DNA of 64,000 nt, taken from positions 59,373-123,372 of the forward strand of contig CAVUHJ010000002.1 in NCBI GenBank assembly GCA_963741325.1, read 5' to 3'. Both the position numbers and the translations under genes were made by a program. The notes below the pieces were generated by a model that did no database searches, was not told where the DNA came from, and saw only the letters and a list, made by a program, of their open reading frames with translations. Positions 8,458 to 64,000 of the stretch are shown here, piece by piece (the first letter of the stretch is position 1; each line of letters opens with the position of its first letter). This DNA comes from an uncultured Chloroflexia bacterium. GTDB lineage: Bacteria; Chloroflexota; Anaerolineae; Anaerolineales; Villigracilaceae.

Positions 8458-8562
8458 GGTTGGCTCCTATAACAAAACAGGTCTGCCAGCACTTGATCTT
8501 TAGTGCTCGCGCAAGACCTGTTGAGAGAAAAATTCCCGCCTGCGCGGGTCTCCGGATCATAG

Positions 8563-8633
8563 CTGGGGCGCCTGGATTCGAACCAAGATCCACAAATTCA
8601 AAGTCTGGTGTGCTGCCCTTGCACCACGCCCCA
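8563..8633 (-). tRNA. tRNA-Gln (anticodon UUG), no encoded CCA
   Basis: Hand-folded cloverleaf: acceptor UGGGGCG/CGCCCCA with U1-A72 and G73, D stem GUGC/GCAC, loop CUUUGAA, T arm CUUGG-UUCGAAU-CCAGG; one C-U mismatch in the anticodon stem. Confidence 0.7.
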
Positions 8634-8766
8634 AAAAATGAGCGGGCAAATTGTATCACACTGAAATGACACAGTGCAAGCAGTGAGCCTTGCCATATTA
8701 AATCAGATGAAGAGATACCTGCCGCAGCCTATTACGACGCGAAGGATGCTCCTCGCACTGACCCCG

Positions 8767-9830
8767 TTATTTCTTTTGATCGGGCGTCAGGCCCAGCTTG
8801 CGTGCTTCTTCATAGAGATATGACTTCCGAATTGGTGGCTTTATTCGCATTCTGTTCTGCCGCCTGATTCCAGAATGCATCGATCTCTTCTTGTTTGATT
8901 TTCTTTTTGCCGGCCTCGTTGAGCAGGGCTTCCATTTCCGGTGCGGCCGGATGGTCTTCAGATCGCCGGTCTTTCCTTTTTTCTTGGGCGCGGGTGGAGG
9001 ACGGTATGGGCAGCTTAAGCTCCGCGGTTACCCCCATGGATCGCAGCGATTTGCCCACTTCATTTCTGACTTTGAGCATGGCCTCGACGATATCGAAGAT
9101 GTTTTCACGGCTGGCAATTCCGTTACCTGCCAGCAGCAGTGAATAAGAAGGGTCCACCGGTATCAGCAGCAGGTCATGATCGCCGCCCGGGAAAATAAAA
9201 TACTGGTTCAAGGCTTCCTGACGGTTGAACTTCGCAACCTTCAAGCCCGCGCTGAAGATGGCGGTCAGGGCGGAGACCAGGGAGACTTCCCGGCTGCTGT
9301 CATGCAGGTCTCCGGCGCGCGCCACGACCAGCCCCCGGTCACTGATAAGAAATACGGCGCTGGCCTTGGTATCCTGCCTGAAGTTGGCAAGCAGGTCCGA
9401 AACGCGGGAACGCTTCGCTTCCGTTTTTGCATCTGTTACGCTGGGGAATATGGTGCGGACGAGGCCGAGGCTGCGCTCGACCATGTCCAGGAAATCCGCC
9501 AGCGGGATGGGCTTATCGAAGATGGCAACCGCACCGGCATTGAGCATTTCATCGCGGGCTTTGCTGTCGGTCATGCCGGTGATCCAGATGACCTTGACGT
9601 CCGGATGCCTGATGCGCACCTTATGCATGAGCTCGACGCCCGTCATGCCGGGCAGCAGGTAATCGGCAACCAGCAGGTCGATGCGATGCCGGCTGACTTC
9701 CAAGCAGCGCCTCTTCGCCCGAAGGAGCCTCAATGATCTCGAGCCCCTCGTTCTTCAAAGTGTCGAGCGTTGAATGGAGCAGGCGAAGGATATCGCGCTG
9801 GTCATCAACAAGCAAGATCGTGGATGCCAT
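8767..9830 (-). CDS. Response-regulator receiver domain fused to a Roadblock/LC7 (MglB-like) domain; frame broken near 9710 and 8812
   Basis: [36 protein letters not shown] (REC), then ..[31 protein letters not shown].. ; a C-terminal ..[15 protein letters not shown] is recovered in another frame. Confidence 0.55.
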
Positions 9831-9856
9831 ATTTCTATTGGATACAGGGTCACAGT

Positions 9857-10858
9857 TCAGATTATACAGGAATTGTTCGGCAAAATGGCAGGCCGCAAAA
9901 TGACCCGGCTTTAACTCACGGAATTCGGGTTCCTGCTCCGAGCAAATTTGCTGTGCGATCGGGCAGCGCGGATGGAAACGGCAGCCGCTGGGAGGTTTCA
10001 AGGACTGGGTACGTCGCCTTTCAGGATCATGCGTTTGCGTTTCAATTTCGGGTCCGCGACCGGGATGGCCGACATGAGCGCCTGGGTGTATGGATGCAGG
10101 GGCGAGCGATACAACTCGTCACGGTCGGCCAGCTCCGCCATTTTTCCAAGATACATCACGGCCACCCGGTCGGAGATATGCTCCACGACACTCAGGTTAT
10201 GGGCGATGAACAGATAGGTCAGGCCAAATTCCTGCTGCAGGTCCTTCAGGATATTGAGCACCTGCGATTGGATCGACACATCCAGGGCTGAAACCGGCTC
10301 ATCGCATACGATGAATTTTGGCCGCAGAGCCAGAGCGCGGGCGATGCCGATGCGCTGGCGCTGACCGCCGGAAAACTCATGCGGGAAACGGCGCGCATGA
10401 TAAGTCTCAAGGCCCACCCTCTTGAGCGTTTCAAGCATGATGTCCACACGCTCTTTCGGTGCGCCGATATGATGGATATGCAGCCCTTCCATCACCGATT
10501 CGCCGATCGGCACACGTGGATCCAGGGAGGCGTACGGGTCCTGGAAGATGATCTGCATATCGCGGCGGATCGCCATCAACTCGTTGCTCTTGAGCTTGAA
10601 GATATCCTTGCCGTTGTAGATGGCGGAACCCGCCGTCGGCTCGATCAGGCGCAGCATGGTGCGGCCGACCGTGGTCTTGCCGCAGCCCGACTCACCCACC
10701 ATGCCCAGCGTCTCCCCTTTTTTAATCGTGAAACTTACATCGTCCACGGCCAGCACCTGGGCCACCACACGCTGCATGACGCCTGCCCGCACGGGAAAAT
10801 ATTTTTTTAAGTGCTCAACCTGTACCAGGTCTTCGTTTGAATTCATATTCTGAGCCAT
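9857..10858 (-). CDS. Oligopeptide/dipeptide ABC transporter ATP-binding protein (OppF/DppF type); frame broken near 10000, 3' end uncertain
   Basis: Walker [10 protein letters not shown], signature LSGGQRQR, C-terminal [12 protein letters not shown] motif continues in ORF 9621-10001. Confidence 0.8.
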
Positions 10859-10878
10859 CAGGGACTCCCGATCTAGGA

Positions 10879-11910
10879 TTAGCGTGCCTTGAGCGGCGCG
10901 CGGTGACCTTCGGCGTTCTGATACAGCCAGCAGCGGACAAGATGCTCGGGTTTGGCTTCGATCAGGTCGGGCTGGATCTCGGTGCAGATCTTCAAACCAT
11001 ATTTGACCCGCGCCGCACAGCGCGACGCAAAACGACAGCCGGCCGGCGGATCGATCAGGTTGGGGACCGAGCCGGGGATCACATCCAGCCGTTCTTTGAT
11101 CTTTCCCAGGATGGGGATCGAACCGATCAGGCCTTGTGTATATGGATGCAGCGGATGATCAAAAAGCTCGGTTGATTCAGCTTGCTCCACGATTTCCCCT
11201 GCATACATCACCGCCACACGCTCGGCAGTTTCGGCGATCACTCCCAGGTCGTGTGTAATCAGGATGACCGAGGTGCCCATCTTCTCGCGCATCTCCAGCA
11301 CCAGGTCGAGGATTTGCGCCTGGATGGTCACATCCAGGGCGGTCGTGGGTTCATCGGCGATCAACAATTCGGGGACGCAGGCCAGCGCCATGGCGATCAT
11401 CACACGCTGGGCCATGCCGCCCGAAAGTTCATGAGGGAAGGCCTGCGCCCGTCGTTCTGCATCGGGGATGCCCACCATCTTAAGCAGGTCCACGGCGCGT
11501 TTCTGGCCGGCTTCCTTGCCGAAATCCTGGTGGATGCTTAACACCTCGGCAATTTGATCTCCCACTCGGAAAACCGGGTTGAGCGCGGTCTGGGGCTGCT
11601 GGAAGATCATGGAGATGCGGTTGCCGCGCACTTTCATCATCTCGGTCTCGGACAATTTGAGCAGGTCCACGCCGTCCAGCAAAACTTCGCCTTCCAGCAC
11701 CTTGCCGGGCTTGGATACCAGCCGCATGATGGAAAGGGAAGCCACACTTTTACCGCACCCCGATTCACCCACCAACCCAAGGATCTCACCGGGATAGACG
11801 ACGAAATCCACGCCATCCACGGCATGGACCACCCCATCTTCAGTGAAGAAGTGTGTCTTGAGGTTTTTCACTTCCAGTAAGGGTTTCTTATCGGTCTTCG
11901 CCACAGCCAA
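10879..11910 (-). CDS. Oligopeptide/dipeptide ABC transporter ATP-binding protein (OppD/DppD type)
   Basis: Intact 343 aa; [18 protein letters not shown]-terminal [11 protein letters not shown]. Confidence 0.85.
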
Positions 11911-48488: not shown

Positions 48489-49354
48489 ATGAACAAGACT
48501 TTGAGCACGATCCTGATCGTCATCGCCATCCTCGCTTTAGCGGGCGGCATCTTTTTCTTCGGAACCATGTACGCCCGCGCCTCCGTCTTTGGCCCGGGCA
48601 TGATGGCATTTGCACCTGGCACCAGCACAGGTGTGCCAGTATATGGTACGAACAATAACAATTCTTATGGTCCAGGGACGGCTGGCGGTTATGGCATAGG
48701 GCCTGGCATGATGGGTACAGGCCGCGGCGGTTACGGCATGGGACCCGGGCATGATGAATGGCTACGGCTTGAATAACGGGACGGCTTCCAACGCCACTCC
48801 CCTTACGGTTGACCAGGCTAAGCAGGCTGCGGGGAAATATATCCAATCCCTCAACATTCAAGGATTCGAAATCGGAGAGGTCATGATCTTCGATAATAAT
48901 GCCTATGTGGTCGTGAAGGAAAGCGACACGGGTTTGGGCGCGTTCGAACTATTGGTAGACCCGGTCTCGCAGATCGCCTACCCGGAATATGGCCCCAACA
49001 TGATGTGGAACCTCAAGTATGGCGGCCTCAACCACAGTGGAATGATGTTTGGCATAGGTGCGGCTGGGCGGCATGGCATGATGGAACGGTTCGAATTACC
49101 AATCTACGACCCCGGCGGATGTCTCGCCGGATATGACCGTAACAAAAGACCAGGCCATCAAGAACGCCCAGGCTTATCTCGACCAATATCAGCCCGGAAC
49201 CATCGCCGCTAATGACCCCATGCAGTTCTACGGATATTACACCCTCGACTTCTCGAAAGTTGGCAAGGTCACCGGAATGTTAAGTGTCAATGGTTTTAGT
49301 GGACAGGTCTTCCTCCACACCTGGCATGGAACTTTTATCGAAGAATCCAAGTAA
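48489..49354 (+). CDS. Membrane-anchored Gly/Met-rich protein with two PepSY-like domains; frame broken near 48745 and 49125
   Basis: N-terminal TM, GPGMMG repeats, ..LTVDQAKQAAGKYIQSL.. and ..MTVTKDQAIKNAQAYLDQY.. modules. Confidence 0.55.
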
Positions 49355-49522
49355 CCGGTTCGCACTTGCGCTGATGATCAGACTGGTCGCGCGCGTCAGT
49401 TTCATCTGGACTGAAGTTCGCACGAAGTATACCTGCACCTTCGGTGTCCGGGGAACCGAAGGGACAGTAGTATACCTACAGTCACTATCGGACATTAACC
49501 TTAAGGCAATCGAGCAGCTCTC

Positions 49523-50206
49523 ATGGCAAAAATCCTTGTGATAGACGACGAACCCTCCATTGTAAATCTCGTAACCGCCTACCTCAAACCGGAAGGCTAC
49601 GAGGTGCACACTGCCATTGACGGGCAATCGGGTCTCAAAGCCGCGCGCGCTTTCAAGCCCGACCTGGTTATCCTGGATATCATGCTGCCCGGCATGGACG
49701 GGTTGGAGCTGCTCTCACGCTTGCGCCGCGAATCAGAAGTGTACGTGATCCTGCTCACGGCCAAAACCGAGGAGACCGATAAGATCGTGGGCCTCTCGGT
49801 GGGAGCGGACGATTACGTGACCAAACCCTTCAGCCCCCGCGAGCTGACGGCGCGCGTCAAAGCGGCGCTCCGGCGCATCCAAACCCCCGCCGCTTCAGGC
49901 TCCGGGATGAGCGTATTGTCTTTCCGCCATCTGCGGATGGATACCGGCGCGCGCAAGGTCAGCGTGGATGAGAAGCCGGTTGATCTGACCGCCGTCGAGT
50001 TCGATCTGCTGAAGGCGCTCGCGGAAAACCGTGGGCGAGTGGTAACACGCGAACAACTGCTGGAAAAAGTCTGGGGTGGGGAGTATTTCGGCGAGATGCG
50101 CGTGGTGGACGTGCACCTGGGCCACGTGCGCCAGAAGCTTGGACGTGATGATCTGATCGTCACCGTACGCGGCGTTGGCTATCGCTTCGAAGATGAACCC
50201 CTTTAG
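49523..50206 (+). CDS. OmpR/PhoB-family response regulator
   Basis: Intact 227 aa; MAKILVIDDEPSIVNL..LVILDIMLPGMDG..; winged-helix C-terminus ..VRGVGYRF. Confidence 0.85.
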   Translation: MAKILVIDDEPSIVNLVTAYLKPEGYEVHTAIDGQSGLKAARAFKPDLVILDIMLPGMDGLELLSRLRRESEVYVILLTAKTEETDKIVGLSVGADDYVTKPFSPRELTARVKAALRRIQTPAASGSGMSVLSFRHLRMDTGARKVSVDEKPVDLTAVEFDLLKALAENRGRVVTREQLLEKVWGGEYFGEMRVVDVHLGHVRQKLGRDDLIVTVRGVGYRFEDEPL

Positions 50207-50221
50207 CTATTCCGAGGAATT

Positions 50222-51401
50222 ATGACCGATTACTTCCGTCGTCACTTGGGCGCAAAGCTCTTACTCTCCTACCTGGTCGTCATCGTGGTGGGTGCTGTGG
50301 TGTTGGTCGCTGCCAGCCAGTTCATCCTGCCCGCCTCCTTCAATCGCCATATGGGCGGGATGCTGGGGAGCCCGAACGGTGGGATGATGGGCTTGGGAAG
50401 GCAGGGGTCTGGCGGGCAAGGGTTGGGCAGCGGGCAGGGCTTTGGCAGCCCCACCACAATGGCCCAGCTCTACAACGATTATCGCGCCGGCTTCAACGAG
50501 GCTCTCACCTATGGTGCACTGGCGGCTTTGGTTGTGGCCGTGGCTCTCGGATTGTTTTTCAGCCGTAGTGTGATCGCGCCCGTGGCTGCCATGTCACTTG
50601 CCACACAGCGCATTGCCGACGGGCGCTATGATGAACGCCTGCAGGTGCACGGTGAGGATGAGCTTGCCCAGCTGGCCCTGCGCTTTAATCAAATGGCCGA
50701 AAAGCTCGACCAGGTCGAAGCGATGCGCCGCCGCCTCATCGCAGACGTCAGCCACGAGCTGCGCACCCCGTTGACCGCCATCAAAGGCTCGATGGAAGGA
50801 TTGATGGACGGCGTGCTGCCCGCCGCCGATGAAACCTATCAACAGATCCACAGCGAGGCGGACCGGCTCAATCGCCTGGTGGACGACCTGCAGGAACTCA
50901 GCCGTGTGGAAGCTCGCGCTTATGAGTTGGACCTCCGCCCCGTGGAGGTTGCATCTCTCGCGCGGAGCGTAGCCAAACGCCTCACGCCTCAAGCTCAAAC
51001 AAAGCGCATCTCTCTTGACCTTGAACTGCCTCCCGACCTGCCGCGTATCCTCGCCGACGAAGACCGCCTCATGCAGGTGCTGACCAACCTGACCGGCAAT
51101 GCGCTGCAGTACACCCCCGAAGGCGGCCGCGTCGACCATTTCTGCGAAACGGATCAATGGCGAAGTTGAAATTGCAGTCCGCGATACGGGCATCGGCATT
51201 CCCTCCGAGCACCTGGCGCACATCTTCGACCGCTTCTACCGCGTGGACAAATCCCGCTCACGTCAAGCCGGCGGCGGGAGCGGCATCGGCCTGACGATTG
51301 CCCGCGCGCTGGTCGAAGCGCAGGGCGGGCGCATCCGGGCCGAGTCGGCGGGCGAAGGGCAGGGAAGCACGTTCACGTTTACGCTGCCCATCGCAAAATA
51401 A
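50222..51401 (+). CDS. Sensor histidine kinase (HAMP + HisKA + HATPase); frame broken near 51150
   Basis: H-box ..[15 protein letters not shown]..; N/G boxes ..[18 protein letters not shown].. Confidence 0.8.
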
Positions 51402-51515
51402 AGCAGTGTTTGTTAAATCACAAAACTGAGGGTTGTAAATCAAATCGGGATTTGCTAAAATGAGCCCGCCAAGGTAGGTGCTCTTCGTAAAATATTTATT
51501 TTTTGATCCCTTAAG

Positions 51516-51545
51516 GCCGTCTGTGTCATAACAGATGGCTTTTTG
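51516..51545 (+). terminator. Intrinsic terminator
   Basis: GCCGTCTGT-gtcata-ACAGATGGC (one G-U pair) then TTTTT. Confidence 0.55.
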
Positions 51546-51622
51546 GAAAATCGGGTCAATTGGTTGTTGTTAACCGCTATCTTATCAATTTCTTTCGGGA
51601 AAACCATATCAGGAGAGAGAAC

Positions 51623-54600
51623 CGTGAAGCGAAGAACCGCTCTTGCCCCATTCGTTAAACTCTTTCTTGTCATACTCTTAGCCTCCCTCGGGCTTCAAGC
51701 CGCCGCAGGGGCCGGGATGGCCGCGTCTGTTCAGCCGCAGCCCTCGCTGTCCGTGCCGCTCCAATGCTCGAACAGCATCACGGGCCAATACTGCGACATC
51801 CGCGTGGTGCTGCTGATCGATGATACCGGCAGCATGCGCTTTAACGACCCATCTTCTATGCGGGACCAGGGCGCCAAGAACCTGGTGGATATCCTCGTCG
51901 CAGGAGTATTACCAGGTCGCGCGTGGACGCGAAGACCGTTGACCCAACCGTGGTGCTGCCCGATATCAAAGTGGCGGTGCTCCATTTCAGTCACTGCATC
52001 TCCACGGATCCCCTGGACCACTGCAGCTCGGACGTGAAATACAACTCCGGCTGGCTGCCTATAACACAAAAAGACCAGCTTTACACGGCCATCGATTGGC
52101 TGAAGACCCAGCCGAATTATTATCGCGTAAGCCAATACACGCATTTCATCGAGCCCTTCCAGGCGGCGAGCGACCTGTTCAACGACCCGGCTGCCGGCTC
52201 GAGCAACAGCTGCGTCCATCGCATGATGCTCCTGTTAACCGATGGGACACCGGAGGACATCCACGGTCCGCTGGCCGAGCCTGCCCTGGGGAATGAAATG
52301 CAGCAGGTGAAAACCAGCCTGCAGGGCTTCCTGTCGCAGTCGGAAAACAGCCTGTACGTAACCGCCTTCAAGATCGTCCCCAAATACTGGCAGGCCACGC
52401 AGCCCTATTGGCAGGACATTGCCGGAGACCCGGGCACGTGTCGCTGGAAAGCTCACTGGACGGGGTGACCAGCCGCATGGAAAAGATCGTGACCTCCATC
52501 ATCGGCGCGGTGAGCAATACCATCCCTCCCGACTCGAGCGACCCGCGGCTGTATAAGGTGCGAGGTGCTGCACCATGTCAACTCGCTGCGCCTCACCTAC
52601 TATAAGCTCGACCCGACCGCCAGCCTCACGCTGACCGACCCCCAGGGGAAGGCGGTTGTCCCGGATAACACTACCGTCACGCAGAGCGGCAAGGGGACCG
52701 CCATCGAAGTCTGGACGCTGATCGATCCGCTGGCCGGCATCTACCAGGTTAAAACCTCTTCAATTGACGGGACCATCACCACCATCCCGCGCTACGCCGT
52801 GAGCGCGCAGCTTGAAGCGCCCACCGAGGCGAACCCGCTGCCCGAGTTTACGCAGGGCACAGATCCAGCTCAGCCTGCTGGACAGCCAGGGTGCGCCGGT
52901 GCTGCCGACCGACGACCCCGGCGATACATTGAATTTGGAAGCCAGGCTTACCAACGCGGGTCAAAGCCTGCCGCTGCCGCTCACCGTGAGCGGCGATCAG
53001 TACCAGGCGAGCTGGATGCCGCTGTCTACCGATGCGGTCCAGCTGCATGTAAGCCTTGAACTGAAAGACGCAAATAACAACTCACTCTGGAAATGCAGCG
53101 GTGACACAGGCAACCTGCCGGTTGACCAGGTATCGGTATTGGCCGAACCTCCGAGTGAATGCACGCCTGTCAATACAACGCTGAGCGTGCCTCTGCAAGT
53201 GGTCAATGTGCGGACAGGCCAAAGCACAGGGATCGGCTTGCCGATTCAATGGCAGGTGGCATCAGTTACTCAGCCCGGCGGAAAAGCAGTCCCTTCCTCG
53301 GTGGATGTGGTGGACGCCGCGACGGGTGTATACCAGCTGACCCTCAAGCCGGTCATACCGGAGAATATCCAATCGCATGTGACTGCCAGTGTCCTCCTAA
53401 ACGGCCAACCCTTGGCGGCGTGGTCGTACGATCAGAACATCCCGATCAGCGTCTGCACTCCGCAGCCGACGCCGCCGCCCGTGCCCGAACAGCTGCAGCG
53501 GGCAATGGGATTATCTGTTCTGGGCGCTGTTGATCCTGCTGCTGCTCCTGCTGTTGACCGGGCTGGTCCTCCGTAAAGAGGAACGCAAAGAGCAGAAGAG
53601 AAATTTACATTCATCGTTCTGGATGCTCCTGATCCTGATCCTGCTGCTGATCGGGCTGTGGCGGTTCTTGTGCTTCGATGTCTCGCTCTGGCCGCTCTTG
53701 ATCCTGCTCCTCATCCTGCTGTTGTTCGTGCTGCTGGTGCGAGTCCTCTCCGGGGATGACGATGACAGGTCACGCCGCTTGGAGCTGGATCCTCGTGATC
53801 CTGTTGGTCCTCCTGATGCTGCTCTGGCTGATATTCTTCAGCGGCTTTTGGATTTACCTTGCCATGCTGCTGCTCGTCCTGCTGATCATGCTGCTGGTGA
53901 TCTGGCTGCTCGCGCGCGCACAGGAATGAAGATGAACCCGTGCCCTTCTGGCTGTTGCTGAGACTGTTGGTCCTGCTCGTGTCGTCTGGGTTGGTCTTCT
54001 TTGGCGGTTTCCCCGGCTGGCTGGCAGTGGTCCTGGCGCTGATCTGGCTGGTGGTCCTGCTTTGGTTGTGGCTCATGTACGAGGAGAGGGATTGGAGAAC
54101 ATCCACCAACTCATGGCTTTTGATCTTCGTCTTCCTCGTGCTGGTGGTCATCTGGTTGGTCTATTTCAGCACCTATTGGCTGTACCTGACCGGGCTGCTG
54201 GTCTTCCTGCTGTTGATCGGGCTGGCTGCATGGACTCTCTATCGCTACAGCAATCCCCTGTGGGGCGTGATCGGCATCGTCGATCGGAGGAACCGCCTGC
54301 TGTGGAGCGCCTCGCTGGCTGACCCTGAAAGATCGGTGGCAGGTCGTACTATGATTGGAAGTTCAAAGAACGGATCGGCGGCGTAAAGCGTCTCCGCATC
54401 CACTCCTGGGACAGGCGCAGGCATTGGCTGGTATTGAGAGTCACATTGATCGAGGGCAAGCGCACCTTCAAGCGCAGCCTCGAGCACTGGCAGGACTGCG
54501 AGCTGGAAGACGGCTTCCGCATCATCTGGCTGGAGAAGGCTCCCCGAACCGAAACGGCCTCCGCAGCGCAAGCCTCGCAAACCGGCTCCGGGGACGGGCG

Positions 54601-55022
54601 GTAAAAAGCGTGCCCAAAGCTACGACATCGCAGAGGTCGAAGGCATCGGCCCTGCCTATGCCGCGCGGCTGAGGAAATTAGGCATCCATACGACCGACGA
54701 ACTGCTGAAGGTGGCCGATTCCCGCAAAGGCCGGCAGGTGCTTTCCGAAAAGAGCGGCTTCTCCGTCGAGCGGATCCTGGAATGGGTGAACCGCGCCGAC
54801 CTGATGCGCGTGCCTGGCGTCGGTTCGGAATACAGCGACCTGCTCGAAGCGGGCGGCGTGGATACGGTGAAAGAGCTTCGCCGTCGCAACGCTGAAAACC
54901 TCTATAACACGCTCCGCAGGGTCAACCAGAGGAAGAAGCTGGTTCGTCGCCTGCCCGACCTGGAAGAGGTACAGGCCTGGATCGCCTCCGCCAGGAAGAT
55001 GAAAACGCTCGTAACGTATTGA
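51623..55022 (+). CDS. About 1130-aa composite protein: signal/anchor, vWA domain, beta-sandwich repeats, nine Leu-rich TM helices, small cytoplasmic domain, DUF4332-like C-terminus; frame broken about 9 times (could be 2 genes)
   Basis: GTG after AGGAGAG; ..VVLLIDDTGSM.. and ..LLLTDGTPED.. (vWA MIDAS); TM array 53500-54240; ..YDIAEVEGIGPAYAARLRKLGIHTTDELL..VPGVGSEYSDLLEAGGVDTVKEL.. Confidence 0.55.
53515..54235 (+). repeat. CTG-rich quasi-repetitive coding block (tandem Leu-rich TM modules)
   Basis: Recurrent GATCCTGCTGCTGCTCCTGCTG-like strings; nine helices of type (F/S/Y)W.LLILLL.. Confidence 0.6.
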
Positions 55023-55037
55023 AATAAGACACTTACT

Positions 55038-55224
55038 AAAGATGTTTTGGGAGTTCTACGCCTTTTCAAAAACGAGCAAAGCGGGTCCTGATCTCAATTT
55101 TGGGATGTGGACGGTGCTTTCCCGTTCACATCCCAAAATTAGGAATCCTCTCCTCCCCTAAAGGGGAGGTGGGGTGGGGTCTCTGTGACTAAATACCAAA
55201 ATCCTTATCTCGAGCTAATGTTAA
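55038..55224. repeat. About 185-bp non-coding insertion flanked by TAA; core 55096-55203 is the inverted homologue of 15409-15528
   Basis: Absent from the otherwise homologous site at 58622-58631; contains hairpin AATTTTGGGATGTGGACGG..CCGTTCACATCCCAAAATT. Confidence 0.6.
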
Positions 55225-55229
55225 ATAGA

Positions 55230-55267
55230 AACAGGCTTCGGTGTGAAGAACAACCACCGAAGCCTGT
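55230..55267 (+). terminator. Hairpin terminator of the DUF4332-type gene
   Basis: AACAGGCTTCGGTG-11 nt-CACCGAAGCCTGTT then CTTATTT. Confidence 0.55.
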
Positions 55268-55309
55268 TCTTATTTCAGAAAAAAAATACTATTTCTTCGT
55301 TCTTTCTTC

Positions 55310-55355
55310 AAAAAAAATCCGCGTAAATCCGTCTCGTCCCTGTTTTTCCGCGTTC
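55310..55355. repeat. ATCCGCGTAAATCCG-type short repeat
   Basis: AAAAAAATCCGCGTAAATCCGTCTCGTCCCTGTTTTTCCGCGTTC. Confidence 0.55.
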
Positions 55356-55385
55356 TATTCTCCGCCGTTCACTGCCACCCTCACA

Positions 55386-55890
55386 TCATAATACCGGGTG
55401 TTCAACCGCTGTTTGTTCGCCGCTCTGCTCCGACTTTTTCTTTACCACATTCGTCAGGGCGCTCAGGCCGCGTGCAAGCGCGCTCAAATCATCATCGCTC
55501 AGGTTAACCAGCCAGCGCTGCCACTGTTTCTCGCGCTCGCTTGCGACGTCCTTCACCGATCTCTGCGCCCTGCTCGCTGAGAGTCACCACCGTCTGGCGT
55601 CGATCGGTCTCATGCTCCGTGCGGACCACGAGGCCGCGCGCCACCAGTTGCTGCACCAGGATACTGGCCGTGGGGTTCCCAACGCCCAGCATGCGCGCCA
55701 GCTGGCTGACGGTCATGGCCTTGTTCGCCGCCAGGATGATCACAGCCCTGGCCTGCGCAAACGTCAGTTCGAGCATCAGCCAGTGCGAGACCGCATTGAA
55801 CTGCATGATCACGAACAAATCCATATAGGCCTGCACGATCGCGCCGACGAGTTGGGGCCGGCTTTGCGCCGTATTTTTCACGGGTTTCAT
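55386..55890 (-). CDS. MarR-family transcriptional regulator; frame broken near 55570
   Basis: ..LTFAQARAVIILAANKAMTVSQLARMLGVGNPTASILVQQLVARGLVVR..; natural C-terminus recovered in the next frame; ATGA overlap with the upstream gene. Confidence 0.75.
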
Positions 55891-58458
55891 TTCGGCTCCT
55901 CCGCTTTCAGGACCAGGCCGCGCGAGCCATCCACCCTGATCCATTGTCCATCTTGCAGCTGCCGCGTGCCGTTTACCGTGCCCATCACCGCCGGTACGCC
56001 GTATTCACGGGCCACGATCGCGGCATGCGAAGCAGAGCCTCCGGTATCCACGACCACCGCCGCCGCATGCTGGAAAAGCGGCGTCCAGGCCGGGTTGGTG
56101 ACCGGGGCCACCAGCACATCCCCTTGCCGCAATTTTCCGAACTCGGAAGCATCCAGTATGATCCGCACCGGGCCGCTTGCCATGCCCGGGCTGCCCGATG
56201 AACCGCTTAAAAGCACATCCTGCTCCCTGCCCTTCCGCGGAGCGAGGGCCAGCAAGCGCGGGTCCACCATCGGCGTATCCCCCAGCGATTTGCGCTTGGC
56301 TTTGCGGCGTGAAACAAGCTCTCTGATCCGGTCAATGGTATGGGAAGGCAGCGGCCACGTGTCGCCTACCGATTTAAGCTCTTCCAGCCGCAAATGAAAT
56401 ACATCCGCTGCCGTCTCGAGCGCGCCGGCCTTTTCCAGGCGCTGACCGAGTTCGAGGGCCATGTGCCGGATGGGCGGCTGGGATAACGTCAAATAGAAAT
56501 GGGTGTCCTCGCGGATTTGAAAAAGTGCACGCGCATTGCCCAGCGACTTCAGGAACAGGTTGCGGAGGGCCTTCGTGCCCAGCATCGAATGTGCCAGTAA
56601 CTCGTCCCGTGCCCGCTGCCAGGCTCCGTTATTTTGCTCCTGCTTTGGCCCCACGCTCACCAGCACTTTCAAAATCCCGAGCACGATCTCGGGTTGATCC
56701 TTCCAGGCCGGTTCTGAAATCGTGAGCACCGTCTCGCGGTGGCCGTATCGATCCAGGAAATTATCGAGGTCCTTCAGAAAAGCCTGCCCTGCCGGTGAGC
56801 CCTTTAGGACCGATCCTAATTCGCGCACCTCATTCCGGGCAAATGCCTCTCTCAGCCCCGCGTCAAACCGGGCCTGCCTGGCCAACGCCTCCAGCGCCAG
56901 GTTGGTTTCCGTCGTCTTGGTCTGTACGCCCGAGACCAACTCGCTAAAGGCTAGCCCCGCGGCCCGCCAGCTTAAGCAGCATCCATAACAGTCCCAATCC
57001 CAGGAGCGCCTGGGGCAGATACAGCTCGCGGACCTTCATGCCGCGCGGGATCAGGCCCAGCGCCTCATGCAGCGCCTCGATATTCTGCGCCCAGGTCAGC
57101 GATCCCGGGTTCAGCCCATCGAGTTCGTTCACCCCGGTTATATACTCACGCAATAACGGGTCGGCTTCCCAGCGTGACGGGTCATAATGGCGCGTCCGCC
57201 ACAGGGCAAGCAGGGGATTGATGATCACCAGCGGCGACGGATAGAATTTGGGTGGTTGGAAGCGCACCACCACGCCCTCCTCCTCAAACAAGGCCTCGTC
57301 CGGGTTCGGCGCATCCTTGCCGATCATGGCGGTCAGCAGATTGCCGATACTGCGTTCCACTGCGCCTGTAAAAGTCGTCACGTCCAGCGGATAGGGACGC
57401 ACCGGCCACATCTCCGCCAGCATGGGGACGATCAGCCGCATCGCTCCGGTGACTTTCAGAGGCCTCGGCAAAGCAGTGATCGGCCGCGCCTGCAGGATAA
57501 AGAACTTCCCGGTTGTACGGGTTTCCTTGATCCATGCCCATTCGATATCCTGGTATTTGCGGTAAAACGTCTCGATCTTGACCCCCAACTGCGCAAGCTT
57601 TTTGATCTCTGATTTGGGTAGGGCCGCCTCGCCCACCGCTGAATGATCCGACGTGACTTGCTCGGTACCGCCCCCGGCTTTGGCGCGCACGATCACCTCC
57701 CGCCTGCCGGAAGTCTGTTCCTTGATGCGCTTTGTGCGCTTCTCGACCACGTAATGATCCGGCGTGACCGCGCCGCTCACCACGGCTTCGCCCAGCCCCG
57801 GGTTCGCGTCGATCACCACCACGTTCAGCAGGCCGCTGACCGGGTCCGCGGTGAACATCACACCGGCTGCATCGGCCGGGACCATGCGCTGCACCACCAC
57901 CGCCAGTTTAACGGACGCCTGGTCTACATTTTGGTGAGCACGGTAGAGGATTGCGCGCTCCGACCACAGCGACGCCCAACAACCGCGCACCGCTTCGAGC
58001 AGCGCGGGTTCGCCGATAACATTCAGGAAGGTTTCCTGTTGTCCGGCGAAGGCGGCTTCAGGCAGGTCTTCCGCGGTCGCACTCGAACGGACCGCGACCC
58101 CGTCACCGCCCAGCCGCTGATAAGCCTTCATGACCTCATCGGTTATCTCTGGCGGAAGCGGGACATGCTCGAATAGGTCGCGGATGTCCTGGCTGATCTT
58201 TGCCAGCGCTTCGGGCTGGTCGGGTTGGAGGGCAGCGACGAAAGCCTCCAGGCGGGAACGCAGGTCCTTGTCCTGCAAAAGCAGGTCATAAGCGGCTGTG
58301 GTAATGACAAAGCCGGCCGGTATGTCGAACCCTCCGCGTGATAACTCGCCCAGGTTCGCGCCTTTTCCACCTGCCAGCAGCAGATCGTTGTGCCCAAAAC
58401 GGGAAAGCGGCGCGACGAGAGGGCGGCGAAGGCGATCGGATAGATTTGCAAGAGACAT
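55887..58458 (-). CDS. PEP-utilising enzyme with rifampin-phosphotransferase-like architecture (PPDK_N ATP-grasp + central domain + swivel His domain); frame broken near 56940
   Basis: ..LLAGGKGANLGEL.., ..VRSSATAEDLPEAAFAGQQETFLNV.., C-terminal ..VVDTGGSASHAAIVAREYGVPAV..; about 855 aa total. Confidence 0.7.
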
Positions 58459-58569
58459 GCTTCACTCCGAAGATTTAATATGAGATGGAACGACTTGCTT
58501 ATATTGATTTATATTACCAAAATGGTTTGATTTTGTCAAACTATTTTATTATGAGAATATAAATTGATA

Positions 58570-58685
58570 GCCTCGGCAAGGAAAATGAAAACGGTCGTAA
58601 AGTATTGAAATAAGATACTTGCTTATAACGAATAGGCTTCGGCGTGAGGTTCAACCACCGAAGTCTGTTATCTTAGAAAAAACAA
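58570..58685 (+). repeat. Relic copy of the last about 18 codons, stop and terminator hairpin of the DUF4332-type gene
   Basis: GCCTCGGCAAGGAAAATGAAAACGGTCGTAAAGTATTGAAATAAGATACTTGC versus 54985-55037 (about 87% by eye), then hairpin AATAGGCTTCGGCG..CACCGAAGTCTGTT. Confidence 0.7.
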
Positions 58686-58882
58686 TTATCATGAAGATGA
58701 GTAGATGTGGTCGGGATTATAGGAATGGTGTAAAGATGGGGTTAAATAAGGGGAGGGCTAGGGGCGGGCTCCAGCGTGCATTTCATATCACACCCGATTA
58801 TTGTGATGAACATACGCCAGCTCTTATTGCTAATTATCGGCCCCTGCGCACTATGTTAGCCCGTTCATGTCAACTCGAGTTG

Positions 58883-59578
58883 CTATTTTTCGATAAAGAT
58901 TCGGTCAAACAATGGGCTGGAGATATCTGCTCCAGAATAACCATCATATATTTCATAATATAACTGAGATGAACTAATTACACCAGGAATTGTTCCAGAA
59001 AGTTTTATAACATCTCCTTCTATATCTACTTCGATTATTCCATCAGAAATTTTCTTCTCTGACGCGCCGTTTAATTCACTAACGCTAACTTGCATTCCTT
59101 GTTCGATCGGCATGGCTTTTGAAGTACCACTAGACTTAAAATGCGCTGCCCATAAACAATAATCTGCCCCGGCTAACCATCCTAGCGATGCTCCTGTATT
59201 CTTGTCATTATCAGTGTCAATGCAAATTTTCCACATATACTCAATACTACCTGTGACCACGCCGCTTTCTTTATCAAAAGTTAATTCTGTAGGCACATCT
59301 TTCAAATAGAAAATAGCAGTTACTGAATCGTTTTTCACATCTATTCTAACGTCCATAGGGTCAAATACTGGATTGCTCATGTCACCGTAAGGAGCGGGAA
59401 AAGTAGATAATGGAGCAGGTGTTCCAGTAGGAATTAAAGTTGCTGTAGAAAGAGGGGTATTTGTAGGCGCAATTGTAGAAGTGGGCAGTGTAGTTCGCGC
59501 AAGAGTGGCCGTTGCTGGAACACCACATGCAGAGAGAATCAGGACCAATGCTGCAATAGTCAGTATGTATTTATTCAT
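58883..59578 (-). CDS. Lipoprotein, function unknown, low GC (about 38%)
   Basis: MNKYILTIAALVLILSAC lipobox; Thr/Pro linker; beta-rich domain. Confidence 0.5.
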   Translation of the reverse strand: MNKYILTIAALVLILSACGVPATATLARTTLPTSTIAPTNTPLSTATLIPTGTPAPLSTFPAPYGDMSNPVFDPMDVRIDVKNDSVTAIFYLKDVPTELTFDKESGVVTGSIEYMWKICIDTDNDKNTGASLGWLAGADYCLWAAHFKSSGTSKAMPIEQGMQVSVSELNGASEKKISDGIIEVDIEGDVIKLSGTIPGVISSSQLYYEIYDGYSGADISSPLFDRIFIEK

Positions 59579-59848
59579 TCTTTTAATCTCCTTGAGGGCT
59601 AGCTGCTTTAGCAACCGTCTACTGCGCGGTTTGGTAGACCACTTTTGAACTTAATCTTACATCATAATGGTAGCTTATAGCTGTATCTCGAAAGACGCCT
59701 GGCATAAGCCTGGATTTGATCCCCGCTCTCAATCCCAGTTCAAGGAAGTCTGTTGCGAGCCGGCTCGGTCACGTGAGAGTGATCGAACCACGCAGCACCA
59801 GGGCCTTGTGATGATCCGACCTGTTCCTGGCACGGTATAATGTTTTTT

Positions 59849-60108
59849 GAGTCGAAAACAAACACACATCCCAAGGGTCATCCGGGAGGCAGAGTGGAGA
59901 GTTCTTTTCCAACCTCGGGCCCGGTTTAATTTCCGGGGCAGCCGATGATGACCCTTCCGGGATCTCAACCTACTCTGTGGCCGGGGCAACTTTCGGCTAT
60001 CTGCCTCTATGGATGGCGCTCTTTTCTTATCCATTGACAGCTGCATTGCAATTGATGTGCGCGGTTTTGGGCATGGGTAACCGGGCGGGGCCTGGCGGGC
60101 GTGATACG
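59849..60108 (+). pseudogene. 3'-truncated copy of the 5' end of the Nramp gene (about 85 codons)
   Basis: Encodes ..GPGLISGAADDDPSGISTYSVAGATFGYLPLWMALFSYPLTAALQLMCA..; about 88% nt identity by eye to 61187-61448. Confidence 0.7.
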
Positions 60109-60275
60109 ACTTCTTGCTGACGATCCTACAGAGCCGCCGCGCGAGAGTCTGTAAAGCGACCCGTTTACAACTTTAGAGAATCTGTTATGCTTGAGACGCG
60201 CCTAACTACCTCGCTGCGCAATTGCCGCGAGCATAGGGCACTGGTTCCATTATGCATGAGTATTGAGGTGGTGGG

Positions 60276-60918
60276 ATGAGATTGCCAAAGCATGTCGGCG
60301 TGATTCCAGATGGAAATCGAAGATGGGCGCAAGCCAGACGTCTGGCCAAAGGCAAAGGATACGCGAACGGGTTGGACTGGCTTTGACCTTCCTTAAGCTG
60401 GCCCAAACAGCCGGGATCAAGGAGCTGACGGTCTACGGGTTTACCATGGAGAACAACAGGAGACCACCGGTACAGAGAAAAGCGTTTACAGACGCCTGCA
60501 TTCGTGCAGTGGATCTTCTTTCCAGAGAGGATGCGGAGCTGTTGGTAGTTGGGAATACGGATTCACGCTTCTTCCCGAAAGAATTGCTTCCTTACACTTC
60601 CGAGCGAAGGACCTTCGGCGATGGAGGCATAAAGGTTAATTTTCTGGTGAACTATGGATGGGAATGGGACTTGGACAAGTTGAAAACGGCCGATCCCACG
60701 CGCACAAATATCATGGATCACGTGCAATCTTCTAGATTTCCAGGATAGATCTCATTATTCGCTGGGGAGGCAGGAGCAGGTTGAGCGGTTTTCTGCCCGT
60801 GCAGTCTATTTACGCCGACATTTATGTTGTGGATGAATTTTGGCCGGATTTCGAACCGGAGCATTTTTTCCGGGCTCTGAAGTGGTACACAAAACAGGAT
60901 ATTACGCTTGGCGGCTAG
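60276..60918 (+). CDS. cis-prenyltransferase (undecaprenyl-diphosphate synthase family), short paralogue; frame broken near 60385 and 60745
   Basis: [18 protein letters not shown].. and ..[35 protein letters not shown].. Confidence 0.7.
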
Positions 60919-61168
60919 GGCTATCGTTGAGGCACAGGGCCCTACAGAGCTATATATATTCATGTGTATTATACGAATGTCAAAAGAACCGATTTTCGCC
61001 CGATTGAGAGCTTACGAAGGCATGAGGACATACCGCGAACGTGCTCGGCTGTGTATGTTGGTATTTCGTTCTACGGAAGCTAAGGAACATGATCGTGGAT
61101 TTTGACAGGTGAGGTCAAACGGTATCATTAAAGCGTAAACGCGGCTGGCTGTAAATTTCAAATGACAT

Positions 61169-62476
61169 ATGGATAAATCAAACACCGAGTTGAAAACAAA
61201 CACGACATCCCAAGCGGCATCCGGGAGGAAGGGTTGGAGAGTTCTTTTCCAACCTCGGGCCCGGTTTAATTACCGGCGCCGCCGATGATGACCCTTCCGG
61301 GATCTCCACCTACTCCGTCGCCGGGGCAGCCTTCGGCTATCTGCCGCTGTGGATGGCGCTCTTTTCTTTTCCATTAACGGCTGCACTGCAATTGATGTGC
61401 GCACGTCTCGGCCTGGTGACCGGGCGAGGCCTGGCGGGCGTCATACGCCGTTATTATCCGCGCTGGGTGCTGTGGGGAGCTTGCTCGCTGTTGATCGTGG
61501 CGAATGTGTTCAACATCGGCGCCGACCTGGGCGGGATGGCGGCAGCCACAGCCCTGGTCACGGGGGTCAAGTCATTTTACTGGACGCCCATTTTTACGGC
61601 GGTGATCATTCTGGTGCTGATTTTCTCCTCCTACCGGCTCATCGCAAAGATCTTCAAATGGCTGACGCTCGTGCTCTTTTCTTATATTCTGACGGCTTTT
61701 CTGGCTCAACCCGATTGGGGCGCGGTCCTGCATGCCACCTTTATTCCGCAGGTTTTATGGTCCAGCGCGTTCCTTGCGGCTTTTGTCGGGATCCTCGGCA
61801 CGACCATCAGCCCCTATCTTTTCTTCTGGCAGGCCTCCCAGGAAGTCGATGAAGAGAGAGCACAGGGCAAGACGACGGTCGCCAGACGCAAAGGCGCAAC
61901 GGATGAGGAATTGCGTATTGCCCGGACCGACGTTCTGGTCGGGATGTTCTTTTCCAACCTGGTGATGTACTTCATCATCCTGACGACTGCCGCCACATTA
62001 CATGCTCACGGCAGTACCGATATCCAGACCGCACAACAAGCGGCGCTGGCTTTGCGTCCACTGGCCGGCCCGTGGGCTTATCTTCTCTTCACGATCGGCA
62101 TCATCGGTACGGGCATGCTGGCCGTTCCGGTCCTGGCAGGCTCCGCCGCCTACGCCATCACCGAAGCGGAGAAATGGCGTGGAAGCCTGGAATCCCGGCC
62201 CAATGTAGGCGAAGCGATTTTATGCCGTCGTGGCGGTTTCGATGCTCCTGGGGCTGGCTCTTGGATTTTGTCGGGTTCAACGCGGTCAGGATGCTTTTTT
62301 ATTCGGCGGTTCTCAACGGTGTTCTGGCCCCGCCCCTGATCGTCCTGGTCACGCTGCTGACGAGCAACCCCAAAGTCATGGGCAAGCGTGTCAGTCCGCC
62401 TCTCCTGCGTTATTTGGGTTGGGCCACGGCAGCCATCATGGCCATCGCAGCCATTGGAATGTTCTTAACGCTGTAA
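61169..62476 (+). CDS. mntH: Nramp-family divalent metal transporter; frame broken near 61204 and 62220
   Basis: ..GPGLITGAADDDPSGISTYSVAGAAFGY.. DPGN-type motif region; 11-12 TM. Confidence 0.7.
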
Positions 62477-62613
62477 GGAATCCGAGGGCCTCGCCGTCCC
62501 AATCTACAATCATCAATCTACAGGGTACTGCGTAATTATCTAAACCAACGCCCTGATTTTTGCCCTACAAATGATCAAAACCAGTTTAGACATTTATGCA
62601 AGAAGCAGTAAAA

Positions 62614-63306
62614 TCAAAAATCCTTCCGCCCGTTCTTTCTCAGCCACTTGTTGTACTCCTTGTAATCCGGCAGTATCTTTTCCACCTTCTTCCAAAATCG
62701 TTTCGAGTGATTATGGACGGCAGTGTGTACCAGTTCATGGATGATCACAGAGTCAACCACATCGATCGGGGTCAGGATCAAGCGCCATGAGAAGCTAAGG
62801 TTACCGGTCGGGCTGCACGAGCCCCAGCGTGTCCGGGCCGAGCTGATGCGGATCTTCCCATATTGAAAATCGTATCTTGCGGCGAACAGGGCTGCGTGCT
62901 CGCCTATGATCTGCCGGGCCTGCTTCCGATACCAATCCTGAAATGCCTGTCCGGCATTCCCCTGCGCCCCCTCTGCAAGTTTGAAATTACCATCCAGCCA
63001 CAAAGGCTTCTTCTGGCCTTTTACTATTTCGAGCGCATAGGGCTGACCCAGGTAAAGGAAGGTCTCACCCGGGATGTATTGTTTGGCCGGGGAGGTAACC
63101 ACGACACGCGCCTGCGCCTGCTTTTTCTCGATCCACAATGCGTGGCTGTCCACAAACTCACGGATCGTTTTCTCGGGAGTCCGGAGAGGCGTGCGGACGA
63201 TCAACGAACCGTCGTTCTCGACGATCAACGTCAGAGTCCTGCGTTTACTGCGAATGAGCTGGTTGATCTCAACCGGCATTTTTATATCTTCGTTTCTGCT
63301 GTACAT
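62614..63306 (-). CDS. YgjP-like (DUF45/M48-type) metal-dependent hydrolase
   Basis: Intact 230 aa; ..RTRWGSCSPTGNLSFSWRLILTPIDVVDSVIIHELVHTAVHNHSKRFW.. HExxH. Confidence 0.7.
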   Translation of the reverse strand: MYSRNEDIKMPVEINQLIRSKRRTLTLIVENDGSLIVRTPLRTPEKTIREFVDSHALWIEKKQAQARVVVTSPAKQYIPGETFLYLGQPYALEIVKGQKKPLWLDGNFKLAEGAQGNAGQAFQDWYRKQARQIIGEHAALFAARYDFQYGKIRISSARTRWGSCSPTGNLSFSWRLILTPIDVVDSVIIHELVHTAVHNHSKRFWKKVEKILPDYKEYNKWLRKNGRKDF

Positions 63307-63314
63307 TAACTGGT

Positions 63315-63416
63315 GTCATTGCGAGCCGCCGTTCTTGTTTTTGGCGGCGTGGCAATCTCAGAATGCATTCAAGTACGAGATTGCTTCGTCGGGAAGAGCA
63401 CCCTTCTCGCAATGAC
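63315..63416. repeat. GTCATTGCGAG..CTCGCAATGAC palindromic repeat (copy R3)
   Basis: GTCATTGCGAGCCGCCGTTCTTGTTTTTGGCGGCGTGGCAATC..GAGATTGCTTCGTCGGG..CTCGCAATGAC. Confidence 0.8.
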
Positions 63417-63432
63417 AACCAATGGATGCAAG

Positions 63433-64000
63433 TTATTTCCTATCCTTGTGCGCAACATCGATGGCAGCTTTCAAATGCTCCCAGGGAGTTTCGCTGGGCA
63501 CCGTGCAGTCCGCCGCCAGCATGAAGCGCTCGGGCGCCTCTGCCAGGACATCTGTTGCGGCCTTGCGGACCGCATCCAGGCTGCCGGTGGCGATCGTGCC
63601 TTTGCGTTCCAGCCCGCCCATGAAGGGCCGCCCGAACATCTGCGAGGCTTCTTTGGGGCTCATGGTCCGTTCGCCCAGCTTCAGGCTGCAGTTGACCATC
63701 TGGCCGGGATAATCCAGGAAGGGCGTCAGGTCGTCGTACCCGCCGTTGTAGTCGCAGACGTGCAGGATGTTGAACGGATCGTTCTTGATCTCGGCCCACA
63801 CCGTCAGGTCGGTGGGCTTGATGTACTTCTGGAAGATGTCGGTGCCCTTGAAACGGAAGGCTTCGCCGCCCTGGGTGGACACATAGAACCCGTCCACACC
63901 GGCGCTGCTTGCAGGCGCGCACCAGGGTCACGACGTTTTCGGTCAGGATCTCCAGTCCCTTTTTCACGGCCTCGGGATTTTCCTTCAGATGCGCGGCCAG
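63433..64000 (-). CDS. Uroporphyrinogen-decarboxylase-family protein (MtaA/CmuA-like), 5' end outside window; frame broken near 63900
   Basis: ..GVDGFYVSTQGG..HVCDYNGGYDDL..MLAADCTVPSETPWEHLKAAIDV.. Confidence 0.55.

Follow-up and report, generated by a model that had tools for sequence, protein, structure and literature searches.

A frame-broken gene of an uncultured Anaerolineales bacterium encodes a polytopic membrane protein joining a predicted vWA ectodomain to a cytoplasmic DUF4332 module

Background

Bacterial proteins with a vWA domain are usually described in one of two roles, as adhesins that are secreted or anchored by sortase, or as partners of AAA+ ATPases in the cytoplasm. Here we analyse a gene whose product combines a predicted vWA ectodomain with a membrane-spanning block and a C-terminal DUF4332 domain. 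It lies on the forward strand of a 64,000-nucleotide stretch of DNA, called the window below, from an uncultured Chloroflexia bacterium (Anaerolineae; Anaerolineales; Villigracilaceae; GenBank assembly GCA_963741325.1, contig CAVUHJ010000002.1, positions 59,373 to 123,372). Among the described systems, the pilus-tip adhesins SpaC (6m3y), PitA (7w6b) and RrgA (2ww8) resemble the window protein in carrying a metal-site vWA domain together with immunoglobulin (Ig)-like domains at the cell surface, and are the best Foldseek matches of our ectodomain model (E 8e-16 to 3e-9), at a sequence identity of 7-12%. However, the Gram-positive adhesins are attached by sortase through an LPXTG signal and have neither a transmembrane array nor cytoplasmic domains, whereas the family of the window protein is anchored by 1-13 transmembrane helices that are followed by cytoplasmic domains. 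A C-terminal LPXTG is absent from all 32 proteins of this family; the pattern LPx[TSA]G occurs in one of them, internally, in the Pro-rich stalk.

Integrin beta, with its I-like domain, and CMG2/ANTXR2 share another part of the layout, namely an ectodomain whose vWA domain bears a metal-ion-dependent adhesion site (MIDAS), a stalk, a span through the membrane and a tail that contacts partners inside the cell; Foldseek matches them to the ectodomain model at E 2e-9 to 7e-8. The single-helix members of the family (P0028, P0031, P0032 and L028) have the same type I layout. Nevertheless, integrin beta and CMG2 are eukaryotic, show no detectable sequence relation and have unrelated cytoplasmic parts, and the window protein has nine transmembrane helices, not one. 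On the cytoplasmic side, the stand-alone DUF4332 and COG3743-type C-terminal helix-hairpin-helix (HhH) domains represent the same module, which is present in the window protein as a full-length PF14229 domain. The closest solved structures by sequence are protein-O of the RC-LH1 complex of Dinoroseobacter shibae (8yy9_O, E 6e-6) and a 41-kDa subunit of complex I (9wqv_a); these and the stand-alone DUF4332 proteins are small and, unlike the window protein, have no ectodomain. FHA-like cytoplasmic domains adjoining membrane spans (EssC 5fwh, MxiG 4a4y/2xxs) are also among the closest systems compared.

Each part of the window protein belongs to a known kind. An earlier note, made from the letters of this DNA without database searches, knew of no family that couples these parts, and our searches agree: no curated family in Pfam or NCBIfam covers the whole protein, and no description of such a vWA-transmembrane-HhH protein was found in the literature searched, with subscription journals and about 1.7 million unindexed articles lying outside the search. 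DUF4332 itself is mentioned there in a figure legend.

Results and discussion

A single gene under purifying selection

Our analysis shows that window positions 51624-55022 (+) encode one gene, of about 1130 codons and a TGA stop, for a polytopic membrane protein of about 1130 aa. As assembled, the region 51543-55022 (+) falls into 11 overlapping open reading frame (ORF) pieces with alternating frames. A scan of species-representative genomes yields an intact orthologue in genome G223 (locus L016, positions 8001-11399), which is one uninterrupted ORF of 1132 aa with 81% DNA identity to the window gene. The locus is syntenic: the response regulator and kinase genes that precede the gene, and the MarR and PPDK-like genes that follow it, are those of the window. 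The limits of the window gene follow from its global alignment to this ORF, which contains 14 gaps: ten single-base indels (8 insertions and 2 deletions) and four in-frame gaps of 3 bases. The single-base indels are located near 51896, 51922, 52434, 52560, 52859, 53487, 53779, 53917, 54335 and 54535-54544 (+). The earlier note was therefore correct in joining about ten fragments over single-nucleotide breaks into one protein of this length. In tblastn, the intact proteins L016 and P0010 cover the window frames collinearly over residues 1-1132, and in the alignment P0010 and P0011 have their start codons, ATG or GTG, at the position of the window gene's GTG start.

Intact relatives support the same reconstruction. 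Genome G008, of the same genus, has an intact ORF of 884 aa whose residues 37-875 match the window pieces in frames 3, 2, 3, 1, 2, 3 and 2. Among 25 database homologues of the G008 protein, 12 are single proteins of 935-1169 aa with a C-terminal PF14229/HhH domain according to precomputed domain assignments, and the intact relatives of 1112-1169 aa have a domain order identical to that of the window gene. The order of domains proposed in the earlier note is thus the one held by intact orthologues in one ORF, and in these relatives the parts are not divided into separate genes with stops between them. When the window is read by the codons of the orthologue, no in-frame stop is present in 1120 codons. 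The ratio of nonsynonymous to synonymous substitution rates (dN/dS) against L016 is 0.25 (0.18-0.38 in five segments), compared with 0.05 for the regulator, 0.14 for the kinase and 0.20 for the PPDK-like gene. The gene has evolved under purifying selection. Its breaks are most likely sequencing or assembly errors, because the neighbouring genes are broken as well. This shows how a heavily frameshifted long-read bin can conceal an intact gene under selection.

Fusion of DUF4332 to the membrane protein

At window positions 54621..55019 (+), at the C-terminal end of the protein, the translation matches PF14229 with E 4.1e-42 and 143.7 bits (cut-off 23.2) over profile positions 1-121 of 122, and P0010 matches the same profile with 136.2 bits. 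The domain is helical and contains two HhH motifs, i.e. it is of the (HhH)2 type. It is also the only Pfam family detected in the 11 raw window fragments, in the last of them (E 8.6e-33). The fusion of this domain to the membrane protein is real, as the earlier note had it, and in L016 both are found in a single ORF. In the window, the last frame change is located at a C run near 54541-54544. The frame-0 reading '..PEPKRPPQRKPRKPAPGTGGKKRAQSYDIAEVEGIGP..' upstream of DUF4332 is collinear with the linker '..IIWLEKAPEPKRPPQ..' of P0010/L016, and the frame-0 reading '..PEPKRPPQRKPRKPAPG..' matches the intact linker '..LEKAPEPKRPPQ..' of the same proteins. Moreover, DUF4332 has no start codon of its own, since ATG, GTG and TTG are all absent from frame 0 in 54450-54711.

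Two other readings of this junction are rejected on the linker evidence. One takes the frame-2 tail 'ETASAAQASQTGS' as a match to the C-terminus of the G008 protein, whereas P0010 and L016 continue with the frame-0 linker. The other takes GTG 54610 (frame 1) as the start of a separate DUF4332 gene with one base missing.

The ectodomain

The protein begins with a signal peptide or N-terminal anchor of about 34 aa (51624..51725, +), which the earlier note had recognised: residues 4-28 are hydrophobic in both L016 and P0010. In L016 the signal peptide comprises residues 1-34, and the AlphaFold2 (AF2) residues directly after the hydrophobic segment are of low confidence. The AF2 model of the ectodomain (L016 residues 34-620, from an alignment of 25 sequences) has a mean predicted local distance difference test (pLDDT) score of 90.2 and a predicted template modelling (pTM) score of 0.79, and shows an alpha/beta domain in front of three beta-sandwich domains.

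The alpha/beta domain, at 51726..52512 (+), is a predicted vWA domain with a MIDAS. Strands and helices alternate over model residues 25-260 at a pLDDT of about 90. Besides SpaC (E 8e-16), PitA and RrgA, which are the best matches of the ectodomain in the PDB, Foldseek finds the vWA protein 4fx5 (E 4e-10), integrin beta I-like domains and CMG2, the match to CMG2 7n1o having a TM-target of 0.50 and a root-mean-square deviation of 5.8 over 241 columns. The MIDAS consensus is D-x-S-x-S ... T ... D. In 24 sequences the residues D66-x-T68-x-S70, T172 and D206 (P0010 numbering) are invariant; Thr takes the place of the first Ser here, and Ser is found in the distant members. The pattern D-x-[ST]-x-S can be recognised in 31 of the 32 proteins; the one without it is truncated at the N-terminus. 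Judged from these invariant columns, the MIDAS appears complete (DxTxS...T...D), and the vWA domain around the motif LIDDTGSM proposed in the earlier note agrees with both the predicted fold and its matches. Membership in the vWA family is based on the modelled fold and the MIDAS; the score is below the Pfam gathering cut-off, which sets a limit of detection and does not describe the structure. For one fragment of the family, NCBI gives the name 'vWA domain-containing protein'. The ectodomain further holds six invariant or nearly invariant Cys residues.

Three Ig-like beta-sandwich domains follow at 52513..53462 (+), with strands at model residues 265-365, 378-475 and 486-575 (pLDDT 84-95) and Foldseek matches to the Ig-like domains of filamin, titin and pilins. 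Ig-like repeats had been proposed in the earlier note with a length of about 550 aa; the repeats are there, but the three domains take up about 315 aa, and it is the whole ectodomain including vWA that reaches about 590 aa. The Pro-rich stalk with a conserved Cys (53463..53505, +; alignment columns 670-700, by composition) is likewise present, yet short, with only about 14 aa.

The transmembrane block and the cytoplasmic part

The membrane anchor, at 53506..54242 (+), is made up of a first helix (TM1) and four tandem Leu/Trp-rich helical hairpins. Hydropathy gives nine hydrophobic segments in L016, as many as had been predicted from the window, and also in 12 other long forms. The inner loops are charged, whereas the outer loops have 1-3 aa (3 aa in L016). 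The hairpins are about 40% identical to each other, and hairpins H2-H4 score 117 against 17 +/- 10 for shuffles. Leu makes up 39% of the block and Trp 8.6%, and polar residues are almost absent. The net charge is -27 in the ectodomain and +25 in the cytoplasmic part, and this difference fits a cytoplasmic C-terminus.

Behind the last helix lies a basic beta domain of about 100 aa with seven strands (54243..54542, +; AF2 model residues 7-96). A basic domain at this place had been anticipated, although with about 75 aa it was taken as too short. It is joined to DUF4332 by a disordered basic Pro/Lys/Arg linker (54543..54620, +; pLDDT <50 at model residues 103-122), which in L016 has a net charge of +9 over 31 aa. 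The AF2 model of the whole cytoplasmic part (pLDDT 83) thus contains the seven-strand beta domain, the disordered linker and a DUF4332 domain of eight helices. The beta domain is found after the last transmembrane helix in 25 of the 32 proteins, including four single-helix forms. It has no match in Pfam (E <= 10) or NCBIfam, no usable match in the ESM Atlas, and the cytoplasmic model has no match in the PDB by Foldseek at E <= 0.001. The ESM Atlas search with the whole protein gives merely generic vWA clusters (0.84-0.85), to be taken as leads only. A search of 1.84 billion representatives with the beta-domain profile yields 12 proteins at E <= 0.001, of which the nine with the highest scores are members or fragments of the family itself.

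A phosphothreonine-binding FHA domain is marked by the signature G-R, S-x-x-H and N-G. In an alignment of five beta domains, all keep S52 and four have G-R; neither a conserved His three residues after the Ser nor N-G is found, and Pfam gives no FHA match for the beta domain at E <= 10.

Modularity and distribution of the family

The 32 proteins of the family, with helices counted by a hydropathy script, give an overall view of how the protein is composed. The number of transmembrane helices is 1, 3, 5, 7, 9 or 13, being odd in all 31 proteins that have a transmembrane block (the remaining one is truncated and lacks the block); therefore the C-terminus always lies on the same side. Thirteen proteins are of the window type, 12 with nine helices, beta domain and DUF4332, and one with five helices and the same domains. 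One further protein has nine helices and the beta domain without the HhH module. The short forms comprise seven proteins with three helices and the beta domain, without DUF4332, and an eighth that is partial. In the single-helix forms P0028, P0031, P0032 and L028, the beta domain stands immediately behind the helix. A distant subfamily of six proteins (P0020-P0025) has the same ectodomain with 3, 5, 7 or 13 helices, no beta domain, and an HhH-type module of a different kind. This module resembles the C-terminus of the D. shibae protein-O and is duplicated in P0021.

The anchor is accordingly one helix plus n tandem Leu/Trp-rich hairpins. As the helix counts are odd and the single-helix forms keep both other parts, the conserved core is composed of the ectodomain, one transmembrane helix and the beta domain, and the hairpins and HhH modules are additions to it. 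DUF4332 is a promiscuous C-terminal module captured by the vWA membrane family. Family-wide, Pfam gives only the DUF4332/HhH models and weak VWA_2 matches, and NCBIfam gives nothing significant.

As to distribution, 136 of 301 genomes of the taxonomic family give a match. Among the matches listed, the ectodomain is reached only in the source genome (G000), G223, G008, G183 (partial) and G166 (distant), and the match in G135 is to a part of the transmembrane block only, with three stop codons. Most of the 136 genomes have DUF4332 as a stand-alone gene of about 135-190 aa, and the remaining matches listed are either such ORFs or the C-terminal ends of other proteins, membrane-bound as well as soluble. 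Of these, we inspected five larger DUF4332 ORFs: one is a multi-helix membrane protein, one has a signal peptide and a single transmembrane helix, one a sub-threshold DUF4062 match, one DUF1269, and one is probably over-extended. DUF4332 looks like a mobile C-terminal module. The first four of these proteins, all from the same taxonomic family, are encoded at L041:978-3806, L042:1210-3465, L043:905-2581 and L045:955-2031. In the scan of species-representative genomes, four of 7 loci are true relatives; metagenome contigs give 9 loci, mostly on short contigs. A search for orthologues of the same architecture, the step the earlier note had proposed, finds the 12 fused proteins among the 25 homologues and the intact locus L016.

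Frameshifts in the neighbouring genes and in a second copy

Frameshifts are not limited to the window gene: the neighbouring histidine kinase, MarR and PPDK-like genes have single-base insertions relative to L016 at 51134, 55538 and 56952. The insertion near 51134 splits the histidine kinase (50222-51401), and the same frameshift is found in a second copy of the region on contig C4 of the source genome. The insertion at 55538 shifts the MarR gene, and that at 56952 leaves the PPDK-like gene (55887-58458) in two pieces, one of 350 aa and one of 504 aa. By region, there is one frameshift in 1877 bp of regulator and kinase, and two in 3191 bp of MarR and PPDK-like genes.

The second copy extends over about 16 kb: window positions 49508-64000 (C2:108880-125082) are collinear, with interruptions, with G000:C4:1085-24021 (L014) at 87-94% identity; contig C2 ends in the collinear stretch and contig C4 begins with it. 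Most likely the C4 copy is a co-assembled strain variant and no paralogous duplication.

Proposed function and alternative explanations

On balance, we favour the view that the gene encodes an adhesin or receptor which is anchored in the membrane, depends on metal and is tied to partners in the cytoplasm, and that the gene has been broken by assembly errors. Such a protein would expose an acidic, Cys-bearing ectodomain outside the cell and bind a ligand via the metal-ion site, like pilus-tip adhesins and integrin I-domains, while the Ig-like domains and the stalk would hold the binding module off the membrane. TM1 and the n tandem Leu/Trp hairpins may act as an expandable lipid anchor that differs in size between lineages and would always leave the C-terminus in the cytoplasm. 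The basic beta domain, as the ectodomain's universal core partner, would connect the protein with a partner inside the cell, and so may, in long forms, the (HhH)2 module of DUF4332 on its flexible linker; the partner bound could be DNA (the nucleoid) or protein. Binding of nucleic acids by DUF4332 is suggested at the level of the fold.

A number of results weigh against this view. VWA_2 matches 11 of 24 members with a best E of 4.1e-4, under the Pfam cut-off (L028 scores 24.0 bits with a cut-off of 27), Pfam vWA models have no match in the raw window fragments, and a PDB search with the sequence profile of the whole family finds no vWA chain. The helices were counted by our own hydropathy script and no trained predictor. 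HhH modules are able to bind protein instead of DNA, and the best structural matches of DUF4332 include the AR domains of NusA. The closest solved relatives of DUF4332 are subunits of membrane complexes in which the role of the C-terminal domain is obscure. Conserved neighbours, which the earlier note had suggested looking for, were sought in L016, G008 (identical to L023), L022 and L028, and none is shared. The last points are from the frameshifts: with 10 of them in 3.4 kb, the gene is about 5 times as densely broken as its flanks, which have 3 in 5.07 kb (binomial P = 0.008); three of the ten recur in the C4 copy at the same alignment columns, and several lie outside homopolymers, in CG-rich contexts such as TCGCGCG.

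These frameshifts are what a true pseudogene would show, in which the breaks are real and the protein is no longer made in this organism while its relatives remain intact; the patchy occurrence of the family within the genus also fits, as expected for a dispensable gene. Against it, the 1120 frame-corrected codons contain no nonsense codon and the dN/dS is low throughout, the conserved neighbours are frameshifted too, one kinase frameshift being common with C4, and the C4 copy carries many more frameshifts, with about 23 in its counterpart of the window gene plus about 10 in regulator and kinase, which points to an error-prone assembly. The genome has a marker completeness of just 77.8% despite comprising only 9 contigs. 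A recent real inactivation therefore seems unlikely, keeping a small but appreciable probability because three frameshifts are common with C4 and the breaks are not confined to homopolymers. For the latter reason an explanation by homopolymer errors only is unsupported, and the raised density may, as one idea, come from a systematic base-calling error at a motif. The window could also be divided into two or more genes, an ectodomain-transmembrane protein ending at the TAA at 54602-54604, which closes frame 2 as assembled and on which both genome copies agree, and then an independent small DUF4332 gene. Short forms such as the 884-aa protein of G008 indeed stop just past the beta domain without DUF4332, and stand-alone DUF4332 ORFs of 134-190 aa are widespread. 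But DUF4332 starts near 54621 in a frame that offers no start codon, the frame-0 reading upstream of it, 'PEPKRPPQRKPRKPAPG', is that of the linker of intact fused proteins, and the two parts share one ORF in L016 and 11 other proteins, so this division is extremely improbable.

Other explanations concern what the protein does. If the transmembrane block were the working part, the protein would be a transporter or channel with the vWA ectodomain as its gate; nine helices are a common transporter size, and a few members have weak Pfam matches to TctB, Acyl_transf_3 and DUF2339. These matches are sub-threshold, occur in 1-3 of 24 members and are consistent with composition bias, while a transporter family would be expected to have a fixed helix number and conserved polar residues. 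Here the number goes from 1 to 13, the core of ectodomain and beta domain is kept even with one helix, and the helices, with 39% Leu, have hardly any polar residues, the charges being in the loops and the outer loops having 1-3 aa. With helix number varying and polar residues lacking, a transporter role is very improbable. A membrane-nucleoid tether or DNA-handling device, in which DNA binding by the basic linker and (HhH)2 is the key and is regulated by a ligand from outside, has the fold of the module in its favour. It is doubtful, given that the short and single-helix forms do without any HhH module, that the structural matches to the protein-binding NusA AR domains are equally good, and that no conserved DNA-related neighbours exist in L016, G008, L022 and L028. 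In addition, for protein-O, whose C-terminal domain is the closest solved one by sequence, the authors of the original paper call the function of such domains obscure (PMC12079452). With about the same small chance, the adhesin or receptor might be a bacterial integrin-like coupler, in which ligand binding at the MIDAS is linked via a tunable anchor of transmembrane hairpins to the beta domain and (HhH)2. If this were true, a ligand in the medium or on a neighbour cell would have a mechanical or signalling link to the inside, the cell surface of filamentous Anaerolineae would be tied directly to the nucleoid or a cytoplasmic scaffold, and the repeated, independent uptake of two different HhH modules at one position would point to this link as the function under selection.

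Under the favoured view of an adhesin or receptor, the family has a receptor-like layout with three features that are undescribed. These are an anchor of tandem Leu/Trp hairpins, variable in number while the topology is always preserved; an orphan cytoplasmic beta domain, specific to the family as seen from its nine strongest matches among 1.84 billion representatives; and the repeated capture of HhH modules, which gives DUF4332 a defined membrane-proximal context. The immediate impact is modest, because the family is rare, its function putative and its host uncultured.

Genomic context

Upstream of the gene, an OmpR-type response regulator (49523-50206, +) and a HAMP-HisKA-HATPase kinase (50222-51401, +; one frameshift near 51134) are identified by Pfam. 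The earlier note had placed the gene behind a PepSY / OmpR / histidine-kinase unit; the regulator and the kinase are there, while PepSY is unconfirmed, the ORF pieces at 48751-49354 upstream of the regulator having no Pfam family at E <= 0.001. The two-component system is no conserved partner of the gene, because in L016 the kinase and the vWA gene are 3.8 kb apart and G008 and L022 have other neighbours. The 3.8-kb insertion in L016 (L016:3926-7748), which the window does not have, encodes a cytochrome c, a DUF2085 protein, a protein without assignment and a Fer4_5-type 4Fe-4S protein.

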